A stretch of 64,000 bases of DNA, taken from Gemmatimonadota bacterium. GTDB lineage: Bacteria; Gemmatimonadota; Gemmatimonadetes; Gemmatimonadales; GWC2-71-9. Below the pieces are notes generated by a model that did no database searches, was not told the DNA's origin, and worked only from the letters and a program-made list of their open reading frames with translations. Position 1 is the first letter of the stretch, and each line of letters begins with the position of its first letter. Positions 20,193 through 31,492 of the stretch are shown here, in pieces. Made by a program: the position numbers and the translations under genes. The stretch spans positions 32,001 through 96,000 of the forward strand of contig JBDHAB010000006.1 of the NCBI GenBank assembly GCA_039588295.1. The letters are read 5' to 3'.

Positions 20193-20323
20193 CCCACGCG
20201 TCGCGACGGCGGACGGGCTGGCGCGCCCAGGACACTCGAGGATCTTCGCGGGCATCCGGGGTAAGAAACGGACAAGGCGCTGCGTCCGTAGTGCATGTAC
20301 GGATCCTACAAGTGGAGTTTTGG

Positions 20324-22495
20324 GTGGTCGTCAGTCTTCGTAACCGAGTTGGACAGGCTCTGTCGAGCCATTACGACCTCGAGCGCGAGCTCGGTCGCGG
20401 AGGAGCGGCCGTCGTTTACCTGGCACACGACCGCAAGCATCGGCGAGACGTGGCGATCAAGGTCATGCACCCCGAACTCGGAGCGTCCATCGGCGCAGAG
20501 CGCTTCTTGCGCGAGATCGAAATCGCCGCCCAGCTCAGCCACCCCCACATTCTGCCGCTCTACGACTCCGGGGAGCTCAACGGATTCCTGTACTACGTCA
20601 TGCCGTACGTCGCCGGTGAGTCCCTGCGCCAGCGGCTCCACCGGGAGGGAAGGGTCTCGCTCGACGAATCGCTCCGTATCGCCCTGGATGTCGCGGATGC
20701 GCTGACGTACGCGCACGGACGGGGCGTCGTGCACCGGGACATCAAGCCGGAGAACATCCTGCTGGAATCGGGCCATGCCTTGGTGACCGACTTCGGGGTC
20801 GCGCGAGCGATCTCTGCAGCCGGCAAAGACCGAGTAACGCTGCCGGGGATGGCCGTCGGCACCCCAACCTACATGAGCCCTGAGCAAGCCGGCGGTGATG
20901 AGCCCGTGGATGAGCGGGCAGACATCTATGCGCTCGGATGCGTGCTGTTCGAGATGTTGGCCGGCGAGCCGCCCCACTCGGGACCGAACCCACAGGTCAT
21001 TCTCGCTCGGAAGGCCGCCCATCCCGTCCCCAACTTCGGCCATATTCGAGACGCAATCACGGTCTCGCTGGAGCGCGTGCTCCGCAGAGCGCTTGCCTGG
21101 GAGCCGCGGGACCGATTCTCCACGTCGGCTGAGTTTGCCGAGGCCCTCTCCGCTCACGCGGCGAACTCTCCGCCAAATGGGCACGTGGCCGTGGCAACGG
21201 CCACGTCGGTAGCCCGCTCGATCGCCGTGCTGCCGTTTGCGAACATGAGCCCCGATCCGGAAAACGAGTACTTCAGCGACGGCATTGCCGAGGAGATCAC
21301 CAATGCCTTGGCCAAGATTCAGTCGCTGCACGTGGTGTCGCGGACCTCGGCGTTTGCGTACAAGGGGAAGGACCAAGACGTGCGGAGGATTGGTGACGCG
21401 CTCGGCGTGGGAACGGTGCTCGAGGGGAGCGTGCGGAGGGCGGGTCGGCGGCTCCGGATCACCGCCCAGTTGGTGAGCGTCACCGACGGTTATCACCTGT
21501 GGTCCGAACGGTATGACCGGGAAGCGGAGGATGTGTTTGCGATTCAAGATGAAATCGCCCGGAGCATTGCTGATGTGCTCGAACTCATGCTGACCGATGA
21601 GGAGAAGCGTGCTCTCGAGAAGCCTCCGACCGTGAACGTGGAAGCGTACGAGTGCTACCTTCGCGGTCGGTACTTTCTGCATCTGTTTCAGAAAAACACG
21701 GTTCGGCATGGCAGGGATATGTTTGCGCGAGCGATCGAGATCGATCCCAACTATGCCTTGGCGTTCGCCGGATTGGCCGACTGTTGCTCGTTTCTCTACA
21801 TGTACTTCGACGGCAGCGCGCCCATTCTCGAAGAGGCGGATGCCGCGAGCCGTCGGGCACTCGACCTGGACCCCGGCCTCGCCGAAGCCCACGCGGCTCG
21901 GGGCCTGGCCGTGGCACTGCGCCAGCGCTATGCGGAAGCGGAAGCCGAGTTCGAAGAGGCAATCCGCCTCAACTCGGCGTTGTTCGAAGCCTTCTACTTC
22001 TATGCGCGGACCTGCTTTCAGCAGGGGAAGCTCGAGTCCGCCGTCGAGTTGTTCGAGAAGGCCTGTGAAGTCCATGACGACTATCAGGCCCGACTGCTCG
22101 CCGCCCTGAGCTACGCCGGTCTCGGGCGGGCCGACGATGCGCGAGCAGCCTACCAGCGGGCGCTCCGCGCCACCGAACGACATCTCGAGCTCTCACCCGG
22201 TGACTGCCGTGCGCTGACACTCGGGGCGGGGTGCCTGGCTCGACTTGGCCGTGAGCGCGAAGCGATCGAGTGGTGTGATCGCGCGCTCGGCATCGATCCG
22301 GATGACCCCGTGGTGGTCTACGCGGTTGCATGTGTAGACGCCGTGCTCGGACGGACCGACGTGGCGCTCGACCGACTGGAGCAGGCCATCCACGGTGGAT
22401 TCGGGAACAAGAAGTGGATCCAGAACGACCCGGATTTTGCCACCGTCCGCGAGCACCCCCGCTTCCAGGAACTCGTGGCCGTAAGCCCGGACTAG
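20324..22495 (+). CDS. Ser/Thr protein kinase with TolB_N-like and TPR domains
   Basis: GRGG, VAIK, HRDIKPEN, DFG, GTPTYMSPE, then SIAVLPFANMS..NEYFSDG and TPR repeats. GTG 20324 has a GGAG RBS. Confidence 0.9.
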   Translation: MVVSLRNRVGQALSSHYDLERELGRGGAAVVYLAHDRKHRRDVAIKVMHPELGASIGAERFLREIEIAAQLSHPHILPLYDSGELNGFLYYVMPYVAGESLRQRLHREGRVSLDESLRIALDVADALTYAHGRGVVHRDIKPENILLESGHALVTDFGVARAISAAGKDRVTLPGMAVGTPTYMSPEQAGGDEPVDERADIYALGCVLFEMLAGEPPHSGPNPQVILARKAAHPVPNFGHIRDAITVSLERVLRRALAWEPRDRFSTSAEFAEALSAHAANSPPNGHVAVATATSVARSIAVLPFANMSPDPENEYFSDGIAEEITNALAKIQSLHVVSRTSAFAYKGKDQDVRRIGDALGVGTVLEGSVRRAGRRLRITAQLVSVTDGYHLWSERYDREAEDVFAIQDEIARSIADVLELMLTDEEKRALEKPPTVNVEAYECYLRGRYFLHLFQKNTVRHGRDMFARAIEIDPNYALAFAGLADCCSFLYMYFDGSAPILEEADAASRRALDLDPGLAEAHAARGLAVALRQRYAEAEAEFEEAIRLNSALFEAFYFYARTCFQQGKLESAVELFEKACEVHDDYQARLLAALSYAGLGRADDARAAYQRALRATERHLELSPGDCRALTLGAGCLARLGREREAIEWCDRALGIDPDDPVVVYAVACVDAVLGRTDVALDRLEQAIHGGFGNKKWIQNDPDFATVREHPRFQELVAVSPD

Positions 22496-22587
22496 CCGCC
22501 GAGCCGCGCACCCCCTATCCTACATATCAGACAGTTCTCGTCACTTTTCCCTGTCCGTTCAGGACCCTTATCGTCGGGAGACAATCG

Positions 22588-23061
22588 ATGACACCACATC
22601 GGTGGAAGATGCTCCTCGGAGGGGCGGCTGTCGTAGCCGTCACCTCGGTCGGGTTGGCGGCGACCCAGTCGTCCCAAGCGAGGGCGGAAGCGACGGTCAC
22701 CGTCTACAAGACTCCCACTTGAGGGTGCTGCAACCAGTGGGTCGTGCACCTGCAAGAGAATGGGTTCGACGTGGAGACCGTGGAAGTGGATGGCCTGGCC
22801 CAGGTCAAGGCCGAACACGGCGTGCCACAGGCGCTGGAGGGATGTCACACTGCCGTGGCCGATGGATACGTGATCGAGGGTCATGTGCCGGCCGACGTGG
22901 TTCGGAAGTTGCTCAAGGAGCGACCCGAAATCGCGGGCGTGGCGGTACCGGGCATGCCGATTGGCTCTCCGGGCATGGAGGTGCCGGGCAGGACGCCTGA
23001 GCGGTACGACGTGGTGGCCTTCGCCAAGGATGGCAAGACAACGGTCTACGCACGCCGATAG
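22588..23061 (+). CDS. exported CopG/DUF411-family metal-binding protein with an in-frame TGA at codon 45 (probable selenocysteine)
   Basis: GGGAG RBS, signal peptide, VYKTPT-TGA-GCCNQW, then GCHTA, YVIEGHVPA, VPGMPIGSPGME, all in one frame. The ORF track splits it into 22330..22722 and 22744..23061. Confidence 0.85.
22724..22750 (+). promoter_or_regulatory. candidate SECIS-like hairpin immediately 3' of the in-frame TGA
   Basis: GGTGC (22724-28) pairs with GCACC (22746-50); inner GC.ACC / GGT.GT stem closes an AGTG loop. Confidence 0.5.
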
Positions 23062-23143: not shown

Positions 23144-23947
23144 TTGAAAGTCGCAGACCCTGTGGTGACGGCGGGTCCGCACCGGTGGCTGTTGCCACGC
23201 GAGCACGGCGCGTATGCGGAACTGTTGTTCCCCGTGGTGACGGGCTGGGCGAGTCGTTCACCCGACGTGGCAACCGTGCTCTTCACGGTGGCTGTGGTTG
23301 CGGGCTTCCTTTCCTATGAGCCGCTGATGGTTCTACGAGGAGTCCGGGGACGCCGGCTGCAGGACGCACTCGGTGAGACGGCCCACACGCAGTTGCTCCT
23401 GTTCCTCTCCGTCGGCACGGTGACCGGCGTGCTGGCAGTTGCCCTGACCGGGACCGCCACCCAAGTGGCAGCGCTCGTTCCGGCGGCCTGTGCGGTTGCC
23501 CTGCTTCCGTGGCTGTACCGCCACCGACTGAAGACCCTGGCGGCGGAGATCCTCGTGGTAGCGGCGTTCTCGGCGACGGTCTTGCCGCTGGCGGTCAGGG
23601 AGGCCGCCGATTGGCGGTTCGCCTGGACGGCCGCTGCCGTGTGGTGCGGCAGCTTCACTCTGGGCACGCTGGCGGTCCATGCGATCAAAGTGCGCCACAA
23701 GCAGACGGTAGGCGTGCGATGGTCGCGCCCGGCGGCACCCGCGCTCGCCCTTGTTGCGGTCGGGATCGGAGTCGTGGGACCCGTGCTGGGAGCGATTCCT
23801 GTGACTACGGGCGTGGCGCTGGTCGTGCCGGCCGTACTCGCGGGCCTGTTCAGCGTCCTGCCTGTACATCCACGGCGCTTAAAGAGAGTGGGGTGGTCGT
23901 TGGTTGTGGCGAACGTCATCACGCTGGTACTGCTGCTCCTCAGGTAG
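23144..23947 (+). CDS. YwiC-like membrane protein (start uncertain)
   Basis: LLPREHGAY N-terminal motif, about 8 hydrophobic helices, C-terminal LKRVGW. Confidence 0.75.
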   Translation: MKVADPVVTAGPHRWLLPREHGAYAELLFPVVTGWASRSPDVATVLFTVAVVAGFLSYEPLMVLRGVRGRRLQDALGETAHTQLLLFLSVGTVTGVLAVALTGTATQVAALVPAACAVALLPWLYRHRLKTLAAEILVVAAFSATVLPLAVREAADWRFAWTAAAVWCGSFTLGTLAVHAIKVRHKQTVGVRWSRPAAPALALVAVGIGVVGPVLGAIPVTTGVALVVPAVLAGLFSVLPVHPRRLKRVGWSLVVANVITLVLLLLR

Positions 23948-25159: not shown

Positions 25160-25975
25160 CTATCGCACCGTGCGAAACCAGGCCCAACCGGCGAGACCGG
25201 GCCCCAAGATCCAGAATCCCAGAGAGAGCATCGCGACGGCAACCGTCCCGATGATCCCGATTCGCTGTACAATACCGGCGCCGATGGGCCCGAGCAGGCT
25301 AAGGTCCGTGTCGAGCGTCGCAATGACACCCACGCGAAATGCTTCCACCGGATTCACGAAGGTCCATGCCACCAGGGAGGCCTCCGGCAAACCCAGGCGA
25401 ATGAATGCCGTGATGATCCCGAGGGAACCGAACGCCACCAGTACGAGCCACAAGACGATGCCCACGGTCGTTGCACGAGCCCGCGTTCGGGCAATCGTGG
25501 AGAGACACATGCCGACTGCGACGAATGCGAGGGCGAGAAGGGCGACAAAGACGAAGAGGGCCATCACCCAATGGGGAGGGACACCGCGCAGCACCGCTAC
25601 CCCACCGGCGGTACCGAAGCCGATCGTGAGCGACAGAAGCACGGCCACGCTCATGCCGGCCCACTTGCCCGCGTAGATCTCGCCAAAGGTCACCGGCTGA
25701 GCGAGGAAGTACTCGAGGGCTCCGGACTCGCGATCCTCGGTGATGGCGGCGGCGGCTGGAAACAAGGCCATGAGCGGTACGAACAGCAGGGCGATGTGGA
25801 TCATTCCCGCGAAGGCTTTGGCGAAGCTGCGGTAGCCGACGATCGCAGTTGTCCCGGCTCCCAGCGTCACCAGCAGCAGTCCGCCGATGAAGAAGATCAC
25901 GGAGTAAGCAAGGAACCAGCGGGCACGGAGTGACCCCGTGAGTTCCCGCCGCACCCAGAGCAAGAGGCGTGGCAT
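25160..25975 (-). CDS. nosY: ABC transporter permease for Cu-S centre maturation
   Basis: EDRESGALEYFLAQPV, NPVEAFR, about 6 TM helices; last gene of the nos operon. Confidence 0.88.
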   Translation of the reverse strand: MPRLLLWVRRELTGSLRARWFLAYSVIFFIGGLLLVTLGAGTTAIVGYRSFAKAFAGMIHIALLFVPLMALFPAAAAITEDRESGALEYFLAQPVTFGEIYAGKWAGMSVAVLLSLTIGFGTAGGVAVLRGVPPHWVMALFVFVALLALAFVAVGMCLSTIARTRARATTVGIVLWLVLVAFGSLGIITAFIRLGLPEASLVAWTFVNPVEAFRVGVIATLDTDLSLLGPIGAGIVQRIGIIGTVAVAMLSLGFWILGPGLAGWAWFRTVR

Positions 25976-26922
25976 CACGGTTCCGTCAGCCCGTTGGTCA
26001 CCGCGGTACCGTGTGTGCTGCTGTCCTCCCCGAGCACGTGCTCCAGGATCTCGTGCAGGGAAGGGCTGTCTACCCAGAAGTCTTCCACTGGAATCCCAGC
26101 CTCACGGAGCCCCACGAGGATACCTATTCGAGCCGTCTGATCGACTCTGACACCCACGGCCGTTCCGTTTGCGAGGACTGGCGGCAACTGGCGTCGCGAG
26201 TGTAACCACGCCTCGGCGTGTGAACGACGATCCGCCGGCACCTTGATCCAGAGAACCGAAAGAGCGCCTAAGCGTTCGCGCAGGTCGGTCCGATCACCGT
26301 CGAACACGATGCGTCCTTGATGCAGCACCAGCAGGCGATCGGTGACCGCCTCCACGTCTGCCAGACGGTGCGACGCGAGCATGATCGTGGTTTGCGGGTC
26401 GGCGTTCGCGACAACTCGGAGGAACTCGCGCCGGGCTCGTGGGTCGAGGTTCGCCGTCGGCTCGTCCAGGAGTAGCAGCGGGTTTCGCTCTCCAAGCGCG
26501 AGTGCCAGGAGCACCTTCTGGAGCATACCACCCGAGATCGTGTGCAACGCTTTGTGTCCGTGATCGTCCATGGAGAGTCCCAGCGCCGCGAGCTTCTCGT
26601 GCACCATCGCGCTGTCAGCCTGTCGGAGGCGCGTGAGAAACTCGACCACCTCCCCGAGCGTACCGCTGAAGTGGGGTGCTCGTTGGGGCACGTACCCGAT
26701 GAGCGCACGGGCGTCTCGACTGGCGGATCGCACGTTTCGGTCACCAACCCACAACTCGCCGCGGAATGGGACGAGGCCAAGCAGGCAGCGCAGGAGCGTC
26801 GTCTTGCCGGCGCCATTGAGGCCAAGGAGCGCGATCCGCTCGCCCGGTTGCACGGTGAAGTCGAGGTCCTGGAGTACCCAGTGACGGCCGAGCTGCGTCG
26901 CGAGCCCCGTCGCCCGTATCAT
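25975..26922 (-). CDS. nosF: ABC transporter ATPase
   Basis: GLNGAGKTT, ISGGMLQK, LLLDEPT; lies between nosD and nosY. Confidence 0.88.
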   Translation of the reverse strand: MIRATGLATQLGRHWVLQDLDFTVQPGERIALLGLNGAGKTTLLRCLLGLVPFRGELWVGDRNVRSASRDARALIGYVPQRAPHFSGTLGEVVEFLTRLRQADSAMVHEKLAALGLSMDDHGHKALHTISGGMLQKVLLALALGERNPLLLLDEPTANLDPRARREFLRVVANADPQTTIMLASHRLADVEAVTDRLLVLHQGRIVFDGDRTDLRERLGALSVLWIKVPADRRSHAEAWLHSRRQLPPVLANGTAVGVRVDQTARIGILVGLREAGIPVEDFWVDSPSLHEILEHVLGEDSSTHGTAVTNGLTEP

Positions 26923-28262
26923 CGATGACCCGCCGCGGATCGTTTGAGGTACGGGACGATCGCGCTGGCAATCACGGCGGCGGCAAAGAAGCCGGCCGCG
27001 GCGGGCAGCGACGACTTCTGCTCGCTGGGGCCGCCCGACCGGGTCGTGGCCACGAGTCTTGGCAGGGAGTCGACGACCACAGGCTCGGGTGCAAGTAGGG
27101 GAAACACGCGCCCCAGGAGATTAAGGGCGGTGGTGGCTAGAGACAGGTTGTAGAGTCGCAGACCCTGGTGTTTCGCAAACAGGTCGTCGGAGAGCCGCTC
27201 ATACACGAACGGCATGTCGCCATGCCCGTCTCCGTCGGCATCGAACCCCACGTAGTCGCTCCAGTAGTTCTCAAGCCAACGATTGCGGAGTGCGGTGCCG
27301 CCACCTGCCACGGCCACGGGTTGCACGTTGTCAATGAACTGGTTTGCGCGGAAGACGTTTCCGTGCACCGAAGGAAGCATTGCCACCGCGACATCGTTGT
27401 ACGCCACGACGTTGTCTTCGAACTGGTTGCTGGCCCGCTCGGACGACGGGGAGTTGTCCAGCGAGATCCCCACGGCGTTCTTGATCATGAAGTTCCCAAC
27501 CGCTCGGATATCATCGGAGTCCTTGAAGCCGATGCCGCGTCCAGTCGTGCCTTTCGCATGGGCGAACACATTCCCCCGGAAGGTGATGCCCCGCGAGTAC
27601 ATGATGAACGCGCCGACGCGATTGCCGTGAAACGCGTTGTCTTCAAACACATTGTGATCGCTGTACATGTAGTGCAGACCGTAGCGACTGTCCTGCACCT
27701 GGTTGCCCCGGATCAGCGTACTATCCGAAAACCAGATCACCAGGTCGCGGACGCGGTCCAAGCGATTGTCAGTGACCGTGCCGTTGTGGCTGTACCAGAA
27801 GTGGATCCCGTCACCGCGCAGCGGGAGCGCCAGGTTCTTTCCCTCGATGCTGTTTCGGCGGACGATCGCATTGTGGCACTGCTTGAGATAGATCCCGAAC
27901 AGCACATCCTCGAATTGGTTGTCCTCGATGCGCACGGCATCGGCCCCGTCCGCGATGATTCCGGAATCTTCCCGAGATTGATCGCTACCTGACCCACGAA
28001 TCACGAACCCACGGACCGTCGCCGATGCGCGGATCACGATGACGCTGCCTCGCCCATCTCCTTCGATCACGGTCCCGGGCTCGCCCACGAGCACCACGGG
28101 GCGGTCCAGCAGGAGGTGTTCGTGATACGTGCCGGCTGTGACGACGATGGTGTCGCCCGGCGCCGCTGCTTGCAGTGCATCCCGAATGGTGGCGTGGTCG
28201 CCCTGCGGGCCAACCGTGAGTTGTGAGGCCTGAAGTGCCAGGAGAGCAGCGTAGACGATCAC
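26919..28262 (-). CDS. nosD: periplasmic beta-helix Cu-S maturation protein
   Basis: RGDGIHFWYS, SRYGLHYMYS, NYWSDYVGFDADGDGHGD. GTG start at 28262 inferred. Confidence 0.92.
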   Translation of the reverse strand: MIVYAALLALQASQLTVGPQGDHATIRDALQAAAPGDTIVVTAGTYHEHLLLDRPVVLVGEPGTVIEGDGRGSVIVIRASATVRGFVIRGSGSDQSREDSGIIADGADAVRIEDNQFEDVLFGIYLKQCHNAIVRRNSIEGKNLALPLRGDGIHFWYSHNGTVTDNRLDRVRDLVIWFSDSTLIRGNQVQDSRYGLHYMYSDHNVFEDNAFHGNRVGAFIMYSRGITFRGNVFAHAKGTTGRGIGFKDSDDIRAVGNFMIKNAVGISLDNSPSSERASNQFEDNVVAYNDVAVAMLPSVHGNVFRANQFIDNVQPVAVAGGGTALRNRWLENYWSDYVGFDADGDGHGDMPFVYERLSDDLFAKHQGLRLYNLSLATTALNLLGRVFPLLAPEPVVVDSLPRLVATTRSGGPSEQKSSLPAAAGFFAAAVIASAIVPYLKRSAAGHR

Positions 28263-28263
28263 G

Positions 28264-28875
28264 TTACGCCGTCTTCTTGAACCGCCGCCACTCAAGGAAC
28301 ACGACCACCGGGCCGATCAGTCCGGCGATGCCCATGAGGATCGCTCCCAACGCAGGCCAGCTCGAGACGGAGAACTGCCCGACGGCGGTCGGTCCGATGA
28401 AGTGCGGGGTGAACGGGTCGATCTTGAGCGGGGCCGTGGGAGAGAGGTCGTGGCCGTACTCGTACAGCCAGTGTTGCAGAGTGTACAGCATGACCGCACC
28501 GAACAGGACGAAGTCCATCCAGCCGAGTGCGGCGATCGGCATCCGGCCGATCAGCGCCGTGAGGAGCGCGAACGCGAAGAACCGCAGAATGAAGAATGGG
28601 ATGAAGCGAAACTCCGGAAACTCGTCGGCATCGATCTCCTTCATCCCGATGTAGTGATTGAGCAAGTTCACTTCGGAGACATCGCCCTCGACGGTAGTCG
28701 GGTGAATCATGACCGCGAGCCCATCCGGGTACTGCGGGGCGCGCAACGTGATCCGCCATGTCGGGAGGAATGCAGCGGGGAGAATCGCGAGCGTTGCCGC
28801 GACGATCAACACACGGCTCGTATATGACAGTTGAGTTTGAAAGAACGTCGTGATCTTGTCCATGGATTCCATCAT
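28264..28875 (-). CDS. nosB: clade II nos membrane protein
   Basis: WRITLRAPQYPDGL, NLLNHYIGM, YEYGHDL; 4 TM helices; directly after nosZ. GAGGAG RBS before ATG 28875. Confidence 0.8.
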   Translation of the reverse strand: MMESMDKITTFFQTQLSYTSRVLIVAATLAILPAAFLPTWRITLRAPQYPDGLAVMIHPTTVEGDVSEVNLLNHYIGMKEIDADEFPEFRFIPFFILRFFAFALLTALIGRMPIAALGWMDFVLFGAVMLYTLQHWLYEYGHDLSPTAPLKIDPFTPHFIGPTAVGQFSVSSWPALGAILMGIAGLIGPVVVFLEWRRFKKTA

Positions 28876-28911
28876 CGAGATTCTCCTCATTGGAGCGGCG
28901 GGGCCCCAGTG

Positions 28912-28955
28912 CCCCTCCACCCACCGTGCGGGAGGGCGGATCGTGGGTGGAGGGG
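28912..28955 (-). terminator. 13-bp stem-loop between nosZ and nosB (partial terminator or mRNA stabiliser)
   Basis: CCCCTCCACCCAC / GTGGGTGGAGGGG perfect inverted repeat. Confidence 0.55.
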
Positions 28956-28977
28956 TGTGTGTCGAGCTACGAGGTCG

Positions 28978-30936
28978 TTATCGTGGCTCGACCAAGAGAT
29001 AGCCCGCCATCTCGAGATGGAGCGCGGAGCAGAACTCCGTGCAGTAATACGGGTAGACGCCCGGCGCGTCGGCAACGAACGCCACCGTCTCCGATTCGCC
29101 CGGTTCCAGGCTCAGGTTGATGTTGTATTTTGCGATTCCAAATCCATGGGTGGCGTCGTGTGCCGTCTCGACACTGGTGATGTGAACGATGACACTGTCG
29201 CCCTCACGCACGCGTACCCGCTCGGGATTGAAGTGCGAGCGTATCGCGGTCATGTAGACGTGTACGGTGTTGCCTCGACGTTGGATTCGCTCTTGTCCAA
29301 GCTGCACCGCGTTGGCGGACGGCCCCATGGTTCCCGGGCTGTATCCGACCTGCGGGTACACCCGAAACGGCTGCAGTTTGTCGGTCTTGATCATCTGCGC
29401 GTAGTGCGGCTCCCCGATGCCGATGGGCATGTCGTAGAGCAGCTGCATCTTGTCGCCCGAGATGTCGATGAGCTGGAAGTTCTGCGGCAGGAGCGGCCCC
29501 ACATCGTTGAAGCGGTCGAGCGACCACTTATCCATCGCGATGAGGTACTTGCCGTCAGGCGACTTGGTGTCGCCCTCCGCCGTGGCAAGGTGGCCGACGT
29601 TGTAGTGCACGCCGATCGTGTCCAGCCACTGGAGCGGATTGAGGCTCCACTTCGTGACTTTGGTGTCGAGGAAGATGGACGTGTAGGCGTTCCCCTTGTC
29701 GTCGAACTGGGTGTGTAACGGTCCCAGGCCTACCTCGAGCTGACCGTCGAGCACCGAGGCGAAGTCGAGGATCGGCACACCGTACGCGTCGTTGCCGCTG
29801 AAGACCTGATTCTCGATTGCCTGCTGGATCTTCTCCCACGAGTAGACGGTGACGTGGGGATCGAGCTTCCCGGATACGACGATGAAGCGGCCGTCTGGCG
29901 TCACGTCGGCACCGTGTGGGCTCTTGGGTTCCGGAATGAAGAAGAGAATCCCCTCGTCGATCGCCGTCTGGAGCGGAATCACCCGCTGGCCGCGTGCCAT
30001 CCGAGTGTTGCCGGCGGTGGCCGCAATCTCTGCCGCCTTCTGCCAGTTGATGACGTGCATGTAGTCCATGTCATTGGCGGACGCACCGGCCTCGAACGCG
30101 GGGTTCCCGCTCTCGATGCCCCCGGTGGCCATTTCGGTATTGAACGAATTGAGGAACGCCCATCCGAAGGACGGTCCCTTGCCGGCATCGGAGAGATCGT
30201 GCCAGTACGGGGGAAGCTCGATCGAGAACGACGCGGCCTCGTCGATTCGCCCGCGGTCGCGGTCGAACTTCCACATCGTGATCAGCCCTCGATAGTCCTG
30301 CTCGTACCGATCGAGTTCGGCATAGTCGACCCACAGCGGCACCGAGTACTGCGCGCCCTCGATCACGTACTCGGTGTTGGGTGTGACGAAGGCTCCACCG
30401 TGGTTGGTGCCCATGTTCGGATTGGTCACGATCTGCTTGGTCTCGAAGTCCCGCAGATCGATGACCGCGATGCGCGGATTGGCCTTGTCGTTGATGAACA
30501 GGAACTGACCGTCGTAGTCCGCGTCGGTCTCGGACAGGGCAGGATGGTGCGTATCACCCCAGGTGATCTCATGGCCAGCCATGCGTCCGCTCGCCATGAG
30601 CTCCTTGTGCTCCTCGGCGCCGTACCCGTATCCCTGCCAAGGCTCCGGTGTGAACGCCGCGATCACCTTGAGCAGGCGCATGGAGGGAACCCCGATGACC
30701 AGGACTTGGCCCGAGTGTCCGCCAGACGAGAACAACATGTACTCGTCCATCTGGCCTGTCGGCTGATAGGTTTTGAGTGCGGCCACCATGTCCGCGTCGG
30801 TCAGGCCTCGATTCCGGGCGATGGAGCCGAGATCGGCGCTGCCTCCCGGCGTGGCGCAGGATCCCATCCCGGCAACGATGACCACAGTGATGGCTACGGT
30901 GAGGGCGAGTCCCCACCCCAATCTCTTGGATTGCAT
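28978..30936 (-). CDS. nosZ: clade II (Sec-exported) nitrous oxide reductase
   Basis: FSSGGHSGQ; CuZ His motifs GDTHHP, NHGG, SPHG, GPLHT, VGH, EPH; CuA motif YCTEFCSALHLEM. No twin-Arg signal; MGSC lipobox-like signal. Confidence 0.97.
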   Translation of the reverse strand: MQSKRLGWGLALTVAITVVIVAGMGSCATPGGSADLGSIARNRGLTDADMVAALKTYQPTGQMDEYMLFSSGGHSGQVLVIGVPSMRLLKVIAAFTPEPWQGYGYGAEEHKELMASGRMAGHEITWGDTHHPALSETDADYDGQFLFINDKANPRIAVIDLRDFETKQIVTNPNMGTNHGGAFVTPNTEYVIEGAQYSVPLWVDYAELDRYEQDYRGLITMWKFDRDRGRIDEAASFSIELPPYWHDLSDAGKGPSFGWAFLNSFNTEMATGGIESGNPAFEAGASANDMDYMHVINWQKAAEIAATAGNTRMARGQRVIPLQTAIDEGILFFIPEPKSPHGADVTPDGRFIVVSGKLDPHVTVYSWEKIQQAIENQVFSGNDAYGVPILDFASVLDGQLEVGLGPLHTQFDDKGNAYTSIFLDTKVTKWSLNPLQWLDTIGVHYNVGHLATAEGDTKSPDGKYLIAMDKWSLDRFNDVGPLLPQNFQLIDISGDKMQLLYDMPIGIGEPHYAQMIKTDKLQPFRVYPQVGYSPGTMGPSANAVQLGQERIQRRGNTVHVYMTAIRSHFNPERVRVREGDSVIVHITSVETAHDATHGFGIAKYNINLSLEPGESETVAFVADAPGVYPYYCTEFCSALHLEMAGYLLVEPR

Positions 30937-31063: not shown

Positions 31064-31492
31064 ATGCTGTCCGGTACCGCCCAATACGCCCTTCGAGCGG
31101 TAGTCTGCCTGGCCCGGCAGCCTCGGGAGAGTACGGTAACCGCGACAGATCTGGCCAACGCAGTGGATGTTCCCAGGAATTACCTGGGGAAGATCCTGCA
31201 CGAGCTGGTTCGAGCAGGCATCCTCATGTCGTTGCGAGGCAAGCACGGTGGGTTCCAGCTCGCGATGGGGTCGGAGGACCTCCCACTCATCCGCATCGTG
31301 TCGCTGTTCGACGAGATCGGTGAGCAGCGTACGTGCCTCCTCGGGCGGGCAGAGTGCTCCGACCGTGACCCATGTCCCATGCACGGCCGGTGGAAGGCGA
31401 CGGCGGAGGAGATCACCAACTTCTTCGGCCACACCACGATTGCGGATGTGCTTGGCCAACCCGACCCGAGCGGACGCCGGAGTGGCGTATGA
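31064..31492 (+). CDS. Rrf2-family transcriptional regulator with Fe-S ligands
   Basis: YALRA, YLGKIL, S.RGKHGGFQL, CLLGRAECSDRDPCPMH (3 Cys + His). Confidence 0.92.
   Translation: MLSGTAQYALRAVVCLARQPRESTVTATDLANAVDVPRNYLGKILHELVRAGILMSLRGKHGGFQLAMGSEDLPLIRIVSLFDEIGEQRTCLLGRAECSDRDPCPMHGRWKATAEEITNFFGHTTIADVLGQPDPSGRRSGV

Follow-up and report, generated by a model that had tools for sequence, protein, structure and literature searches.

The window analysed here, a stretch of 64,000 nucleotides from a Gemmatimonadota genome, contains a reading frame with an in-frame TGA, and the question it raises is whether this codon ends a gene or is translated. We consider it very likely that the frame is an intact CopG/DUF411 gene, here called copG(UGA), in which UGA is recoded as selenocysteine (Sec) and whose product would be an exported CopG-like copper protein. 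The gene is a single frame of 157 codons on the forward strand, from an ATG at 22588 to a TAG at 23059–23061 (Table 1). Its sole in-frame stop is the TGA at codon 45, in the residue context V-Y-K-T-P-T-[TGA]-G-C-C-N-Q-W, and there is no frameshift. The first-pass annotation had joined two ORF fragments into one frame with a ribosome-binding site, this ATG and a TGA as codon 45, had seen no other lesion and had expected standard annotation to split the gene. All of its coordinates hold, the frame has no further stop, and the public calls are of 44 and 105 residues, which are also the only pieces in which the product is present in the public protein collection. U was absent from all 119 other homologues listed in that collection. 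The probable export signal, recognized by eye, includes basic HRWK, a hydrophobic stretch, and A-R-A at residues 31–33, with no twin arginine; translation could also begin at M8, as one public gene call has it. A sigma-70-like promoter was looked for and none was found.

Table 1. Features of the copG(UGA) locus, in positions of the 64,000-nt window.
Feature	Position	Strand	Basis or remark
Ser/Thr kinase with TPR repeats, upstream neighbour	20291..22495	+	Pfam; order kept in 4/4 genus relatives
RBS-like GGGAGA	22576..22581	+	6 nt before ATG; read directly from sequence
copG/DUF411 gene, UGA read through at codon 45	22588..23061	+	Sequence, PF04214, CopG match, fold model
Probable Sec-pathway signal peptide, residues 1–33, cleavage after A-R-A, start M1 or M8	22588..22686	+	By eye
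TGA codon 45, inferred Sec (U45), aligned with first Cys of CxCC to give U-G-C-C	22720..22722	+	Homologue alignment, model
Candidate bacterial SECIS: 6-bp stem, 5-nt loop CGUGC, beginning 20 nt past UGA	22737..22753	+	Hairpin scans
Motifs C86-H87-T88, E-G-H99-V-P, P-G-M124-P, S-P-G-M131 (MX6M pair)	22843..22980	+	Invariant in homologue alignment
YwiC-like membrane protein, downstream neighbour, start approximate	23144..23947	+	Pfam; order kept in 4/4 genus relatives

The read-through product matched the Pfam family DUF411 (PF04214) with an E-value of 5.8e-26 and 90.4 bits against a cut-off of 27. It also matched CopG of Pseudomonas aeruginosa (6wis) with an E-value of 1.2e-31, the TGA aligning with the first Cys of CGCC. 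A second, weak Pfam match was to Glutaredoxin (residues 37–76, E 2.2e-5), and NCBIfam 20.0 assigned no family to the protein. The 124 residues of the mature protein were modelled with AlphaFold from a 62-row alignment with C standing in for U (pLDDT 94.9), and the model fitted P. aeruginosa CopG 6wje with a TM-score of 0.93, an rmsd of 1.3 Å and 43% identity, followed by Mrx1, NrdH and glutaredoxins with E-values of ~0.01–0.05. The assignment to CopG/DUF411, made earlier in the first-pass annotation, agrees with both the Pfam score and the fold. In the model, the codon-45 residue lies just before helix 1, which is the nucleophile position of thioredoxin-like folds (UxxC). The copper-ligand motifs of CopG are represented in the product by U45-G-C47-C48, where the first Cys is U, and by M124 and M131, while the remaining family motifs are retained in 113–117 of the 117 TGA forms. 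The protein resembles P. aeruginosa CopG (6WIS/6WJE) and R. capsulatus CutG in fold, CxCC position, CHT, EGHVP and MX6M, as well as in an N-terminal signal-like peptide. Unlike in these proteins, its first Cys is encoded by UGA and a hairpin lies downstream. The UxxC thioredoxin-fold selenoproteins (Grx, Trx, DsbA/DsbG-like, Prx-like; PMC13188914, Table 1) likewise begin helix 1 with UxxC and are recoded by the bacterial selABCD system, whereas copG(UGA) has an additional Cys inside the motif (U-G-C-C) and the metal-binding extension of CopG.

In the host family, 114 of 151 genomes contained a CopG/DUF411 match. One TGA was present in 26 of the 125 matches in total (25 genomes), in all 26 at codon 45, and TAA or TAG in none of the 125. 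The four other sampled genomes of the host genus all had the TGA, its codon position being confirmed for three. Overall, the TGA occurs at codon 45 in 122 distinct sequences from ~11 phyla, and TGY is found in other homologues. When the TGA of the search pattern was moved to the third Cys, none of the 117 matches listed from a metagenome collection, a different one from that of the GTDB scan described below, was a DUF411 gene. Furthermore, positions 22677–22848, including the TGA, are matched with 0 differences by a contig of 172 nt from a public run of marine sediment, although it possibly comes from the source sample and is weak evidence alone. Marine-sediment metagenomes are also the read sets in which the sequence is best represented, and no RNA set is among those listed. 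Purifying selection acts on the segment that follows the TGA: against eight TGA orthologues, pN/pS was 0.27–0.32, with pS near saturation, so that the relaxed selection which the first-pass annotation named as a sign of simple nonsense mutation was not seen. Upstream of the UGA, homologues show a signal-like region and YKxPT. The codon-45 TGA is thus neither chance nor an assembly error. That it is a nonsense mutation or sequence error in a pseudogene or in two separate fragments, as the split public calls and an intact Cys paralogue in the same genome, with which loss of copG(UGA) would be tolerated, might suggest, is refuted by the recurrence of TGA at one codon across phyla, the lack of TAA and TAG in the family sample, the selection downstream and the identical separate contig.

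The TGA form extends far beyond the host family. A pattern scan of GTDB gave at least 119 matches, of which at least 98 were true DUF411 genes by BLAST and 21 were chance matches. According to record titles, the phyla are Gemmatimonadota, Acidobacteriota, Chloroflexota, Binatota, Myxococcota, Methylomirabilota/Rokuibacteriota, Actinomycetota, Pseudomonadota, Tectimicrobiota, Thermodesulfobacteriota and Campylobacterota. When sampling was widened to the whole phylum, a match was obtained in 235 of 301 genomes, and the matches listed include at least three TGA-containing rows outside the host family. The TGA form is also carried by a cultured isolate, Helicobacter brantae (L141), in which selA and selB are adjacent and a tRNA-Sec-like match just below the cut-off adjoins these two genes. 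Among 81 genomes of Helicobacteraceae, the TGA was present in 6 of 28 matches, at the same codon in the five inspected (L141, L298, L303, L307, L308); one further CopG/DUF411 match in this family carries TAG. CopG is almost certainly a widely distributed selenoprotein family, the genes of which are cut into two pieces by gene callers.

A tree was built with FastTree from 117 TGA rows and 62 Cys rows, 7 others that were short or duplicated being omitted, and 14 changes between TGA and Cys were counted on it as compared with 51.5 in shuffles. The labelled neighbours of copG(UGA) in this tree point to a Gemmatimonadota bacterium as the probable source. Only three of these changes are forced by strong branches, 66 of the 176 forks are open, and the Cys rows are biased to near matches. 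Two same-genus sister pairs were noted, L037 (G107) with TGA versus L057 (G041) with Cys, and L043 (G117) with TGA versus L032 (G053) with Cys. In L057 the stem is kept but the G-G/U loop is gone, suggestive of a reversion to Cys; L043 stands among Cys rows in the tree with a hairpin of its own, which looks like a fresh gain of Sec. Because of these two pairs, repeated gain and loss of Sec in CopG is likely, the number of events being soft.

The source genome contains the complete selenium machinery whose presence had been proposed as a check: selA (E 6e-127), selB above the cut-off, a tRNA-Sec with a UCA anticodon (RF01852, 75.3 bits), and selD with its own in-frame TGA. As selA was found in 133 of 151 host-family genomes, co-occurrence within this family says little. 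For the 25 host-family TGA genomes, selA was present in 24, and the exception (G030, in 550 contigs) has selB. Moreover, the four good-quality genomes of the family without selA, selB and tRNA-Sec contain Cys copies only. The comparison has more power outside the family. Of 50 distant genomes, taken from the 98 with true TGA matches, 42 have selB and six of the remaining eight have selA, giving 48 with either gene. In the control, bacterial genomes with chance pattern matches, selB was above the cut-off in 6 of 19 (19 of the 21 chance matches were tested; in both sets, related genomes are not independent). Two other candidate selenoproteins were noticed in the source genome, W-U-P-Y-C at G000:C9:14776 (-), which we take to be a Prx-like UxxC protein, and C-R-Y-U at G000:C5:74897 (-), presumably an AhpD-like CxxU protein. 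Both have hairpins at +20, the same offset as in copG(UGA). The genome-wide scan for other recoded genes was crude, missing copG(UGA) and selD, and is not an inventory. As a separate observation on the tRNA genes of this genome, 19 of them, many redundant, lie within ~16 kb at G000:C14:47647-63751, a tRNA array of possibly phage or island origin.

The consensus for the bacterial SECIS element comprises a loop of 3–9 nt with G in the first two loop positions followed by G/U, a stem of 4–16 bp, a spacing of 16–37 nt, and an energy limit of -7.5 kcal/mol for which the span is unspecified (PMC13188914). The copG(UGA) hairpin falls within this geometry (loop CGUGC, 6 bp, 20 nt). Its 6-bp core has an energy of -5.7 kcal/mol versus the limit of -7.5, whose span is unspecified, and several orthologues reach -7.5 to -8.9. 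It is no better than shuffles (z -0.89), the surrounding 60-nt region prefers another fold, folding of the whole region gave no signal (z -0.10 and 0.55), and two-sided covariation in this register was absent from 17 sequences. In the generic geometry scan of the host-family sample, a hairpin was found in 24 of the 26 TGA copies and in one of the 23 Cys copies, and 66 of the 98 distant TGA copies listed passed the same scan, the 32 that failed including many from Chloroflexota. The exact register with a G-G/U loop was present in 59 of 122 distinct TGA copies versus 0 of 32 Cys copies. Other registers are used by smaller TGA sets, and 52 of the 122 sequences fit none of four fixed registers. 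Compensatory changes were seen in four sequences of one hairpin type and in five Helicobacteraceae sequences, the hairpin of which differs from that of copG(UGA) and shows two compensatory pair types including a U-A to C-G change; both sets were picked by structure, and the counts are biased accordingly. The candidate hairpin also marks the protein sequence, as judged from the aligned copies. Gly/Val two residues past the conserved Trp occurs in 42 of the 98 listed TGA copies and in a single one of 119 Cys proteins. The stem is closed by the rare Leu codon CTA (2.2% of the genome's Leu codons) in half of the TGA copies (13 of 26) and in none of the 23 Cys copies. For comparison, the hairpin of selD in the source genome has a stem of 8 bp, and its loop is GUC. 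A clade of 22 rows, all TGA and mostly Chloroflexota (loci including L060, L072, L073, L078, L097, L105, L120-L122, L136), is largely without the canonical hairpin in our scans, and selB or selA is present where tested; this clade may use a lineage-specific SECIS.

Decoding of UGA as Cys or Trp is known from other bacteria, and the codon could in principle be read in this way, by genome-wide reassignment or a suppressor tRNA and with no selenium involved. This is very improbable here. TGA terminates 678 of 1369 long coding-like ORFs in the source genome and is their commonest stop, so UGA has not been reassigned; the tRNA-Sec is the sole tRNA with a UCA anticodon among those detected by ARAGORN; and the hairpin and its loop bases change together with the TGA. 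The codon-45 UGA is, as far as can be judged from genomic data, almost certainly read as selenocysteine. The original proposal that a UGA at a conserved redox Cys denotes Sec thus gains support from the recurrence of the codon, the presence of selABCD, the separate contig and the purifying selection. In the mechanism that we propose, SelB would bind the short hairpin 20 nt downstream and deliver Sec-tRNA(UCA), and the 157-residue precursor would then be exported by means of its signal peptide.

The next question is what the Sec-containing protein does. According to reviews, CopG is a thioredoxin-like protein of the periplasm in which four coppers form a Cys-bridged cluster, held by CxCC and two Met residues, and it interconverts Cu(I) and Cu(II) under anaerobic conditions (PMC7558416, PMC8872213, PMC8456105). 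PMC8456105 describes the MX6M pair as copper ligands, and the Cys homologue CutG of R. capsulatus as largely dispensable for copper tolerance. The persistence of the family motifs in TGA forms speaks for an intact metal site that includes one selenolate. We hypothesize that the mature domain folds as CopG, as in the model, where U45 caps the helix as the N-terminal residue of a thioredoxin-like UxxC, and that, by homology with CopG, it binds copper through the predicted ligands U45, C47 and C48 and the two conserved Met, a selenolate replacing one thiolate. The mature protein would interconvert or buffer Cu(I)/Cu(II) in the periplasm, as described for CopG, and selenium, going by its general chemistry, would keep the ligand ionised, soft and easily re-reduced.

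The genomic neighbourhood bears on this role. A heavy-metal ATPase was found neither in the 64-kb window nor in the 19-kb regions of eight relatives and, unlike CopG, copG(UGA) is not adjacent to copA, cus or cueO. This linkage, typical of CopG, is seen at the Cys-only paralogue (G000:C7:11397-11840; L047:4922-5444), which is 53% identical to the copG(UGA) product. The paralogue directly follows a P1B-type ATPase of the YHS/HMBD type; genes for a cupredoxin, a cytochrome c and a PCYCGC protein lie on the opposite strand. In the three sampled genomes from which both copies were fetched (G000, G140, G042), the Cys copy adjoins a P1B-type ATPase in each. The missing linkage lowers the claim of copper resistance and not that of family membership, since it is a frequent association and no strict definition. 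Sixty-four TGA loci were selected for diversity and inspected with 1.5–3 kb flanks and heuristic gene picking; ~7 of them had a neighbour of copper type, as did 4 of 23 Cys loci. The first-pass annotation had proposed a secreted, Sec-containing protein that handles copper; the Sec part of this is well supported, while copper handling comes from homology and no copper-efflux neighbourhood lies at copG(UGA).

Given recoding, the protein could instead be a periplasmic selenol/thiol-disulfide oxidoreductase of the glutaredoxin-like UxxC type, or a general redox protein, with the Cys paralogue doing the copper job. The replacement in the CxxC is confined to its N-terminal position, which is of the nucleophile type, Glutaredoxin is the second Pfam match, and Mrx1, NrdH and Grx are the next fold matches. 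In addition, the neighbours of TGA loci are mixed, and the P1B-type ATPase stands beside the Cys copy and not near copG(UGA). On the other hand, the CopG motifs including the MX6M pair are retained in nearly all TGA forms, at some TGA loci (L099, L122, L072, L083, L110, L127) the neighbour is a P1B ATPase, an RND pump or a multicopper oxidase, and ATPase linkage is found in merely 4 of 23 Cys loci too. We therefore regard the oxidoreductase role as unlikely, though worth considering, and a CopG-like role in copper redox or buffering as the probable one.

With regard to novelty, we regard copG(UGA) as genuinely recoded; the protein family and the mechanism are both known, and the Sec variant is new. 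DUF411, PF04214 and CopG are absent from the 119 selenoprotein families in Table 1 of the 2026 catalogue, in which the families of Haft and Tolstoy (2025) are cited (PMC13188914). A full-text search of openly accessible papers found nothing for DUF411 with selenocysteine, and the matches inspected for CopG with selenoprotein were unrelated by title. Neither DUF411 nor CopG is mentioned in the deep-Sep text and its four supplements or in the BSepDB main text. The metal-related selenoproteins catalogued, i.e., the SO_0444 Cu/Zn efflux transporter, a cation-transporting ATPase (UxxC), a CopZ-like (2Fe-2S) protein and DUF1573 (UGC), likewise have Sec at a predicted metal ligand, but they are different families, and according to the same Table 1 none is homologous to a solved multi-copper-cluster protein (PMC13188914). 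Exported bacterial selenoproteins are already known from MccSep (PMC13510729), and the periplasmic MccSep/ExtKL belong to families different from CopG.

The bacterial selenoproteome thus gains a widespread family with at least 98 GTDB loci. With selenium at a predicted ligand position of a four-copper cluster whose structure is solved, Cu-Se and Cu-S chemistry can be compared in a protein of 124 residues. Natural Cys twins are available in the same genus and in the same genome, and the close Sec/Cys pairs show a candidate SECIS written into, or erased from, coding sequence. We see even chances for a more far-reaching proposal, namely that CopG would be the first family with a genetically encoded selenolate ligating a multinuclear copper cluster (a natural Cu-Se site), that Sec was gained and lost repeatedly at that ligand across ~11 phyla with a different hairpin in the coding sequence each time, and that Sec and Cys copies paired in one genome divide the periplasmic copper redox work. 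Since cultured Helicobacter species have the UGA form, the claim of a Sec-containing CopG is directly testable.

A nitrous-oxide reductase cluster 2.1 kb downstream of copG(UGA) was considered as a conserved partner and rejected, because nos genes were present in none of the 19-kb regions of eight relatives. The cluster itself (25160–30936, reverse strand) contains nosZ, a gene for a 218-aa membrane protein without a Pfam match, and nosD/F/Y-like genes, and a divergent Rrf2 regulator is located beside it at 31064–31492 on the forward strand.
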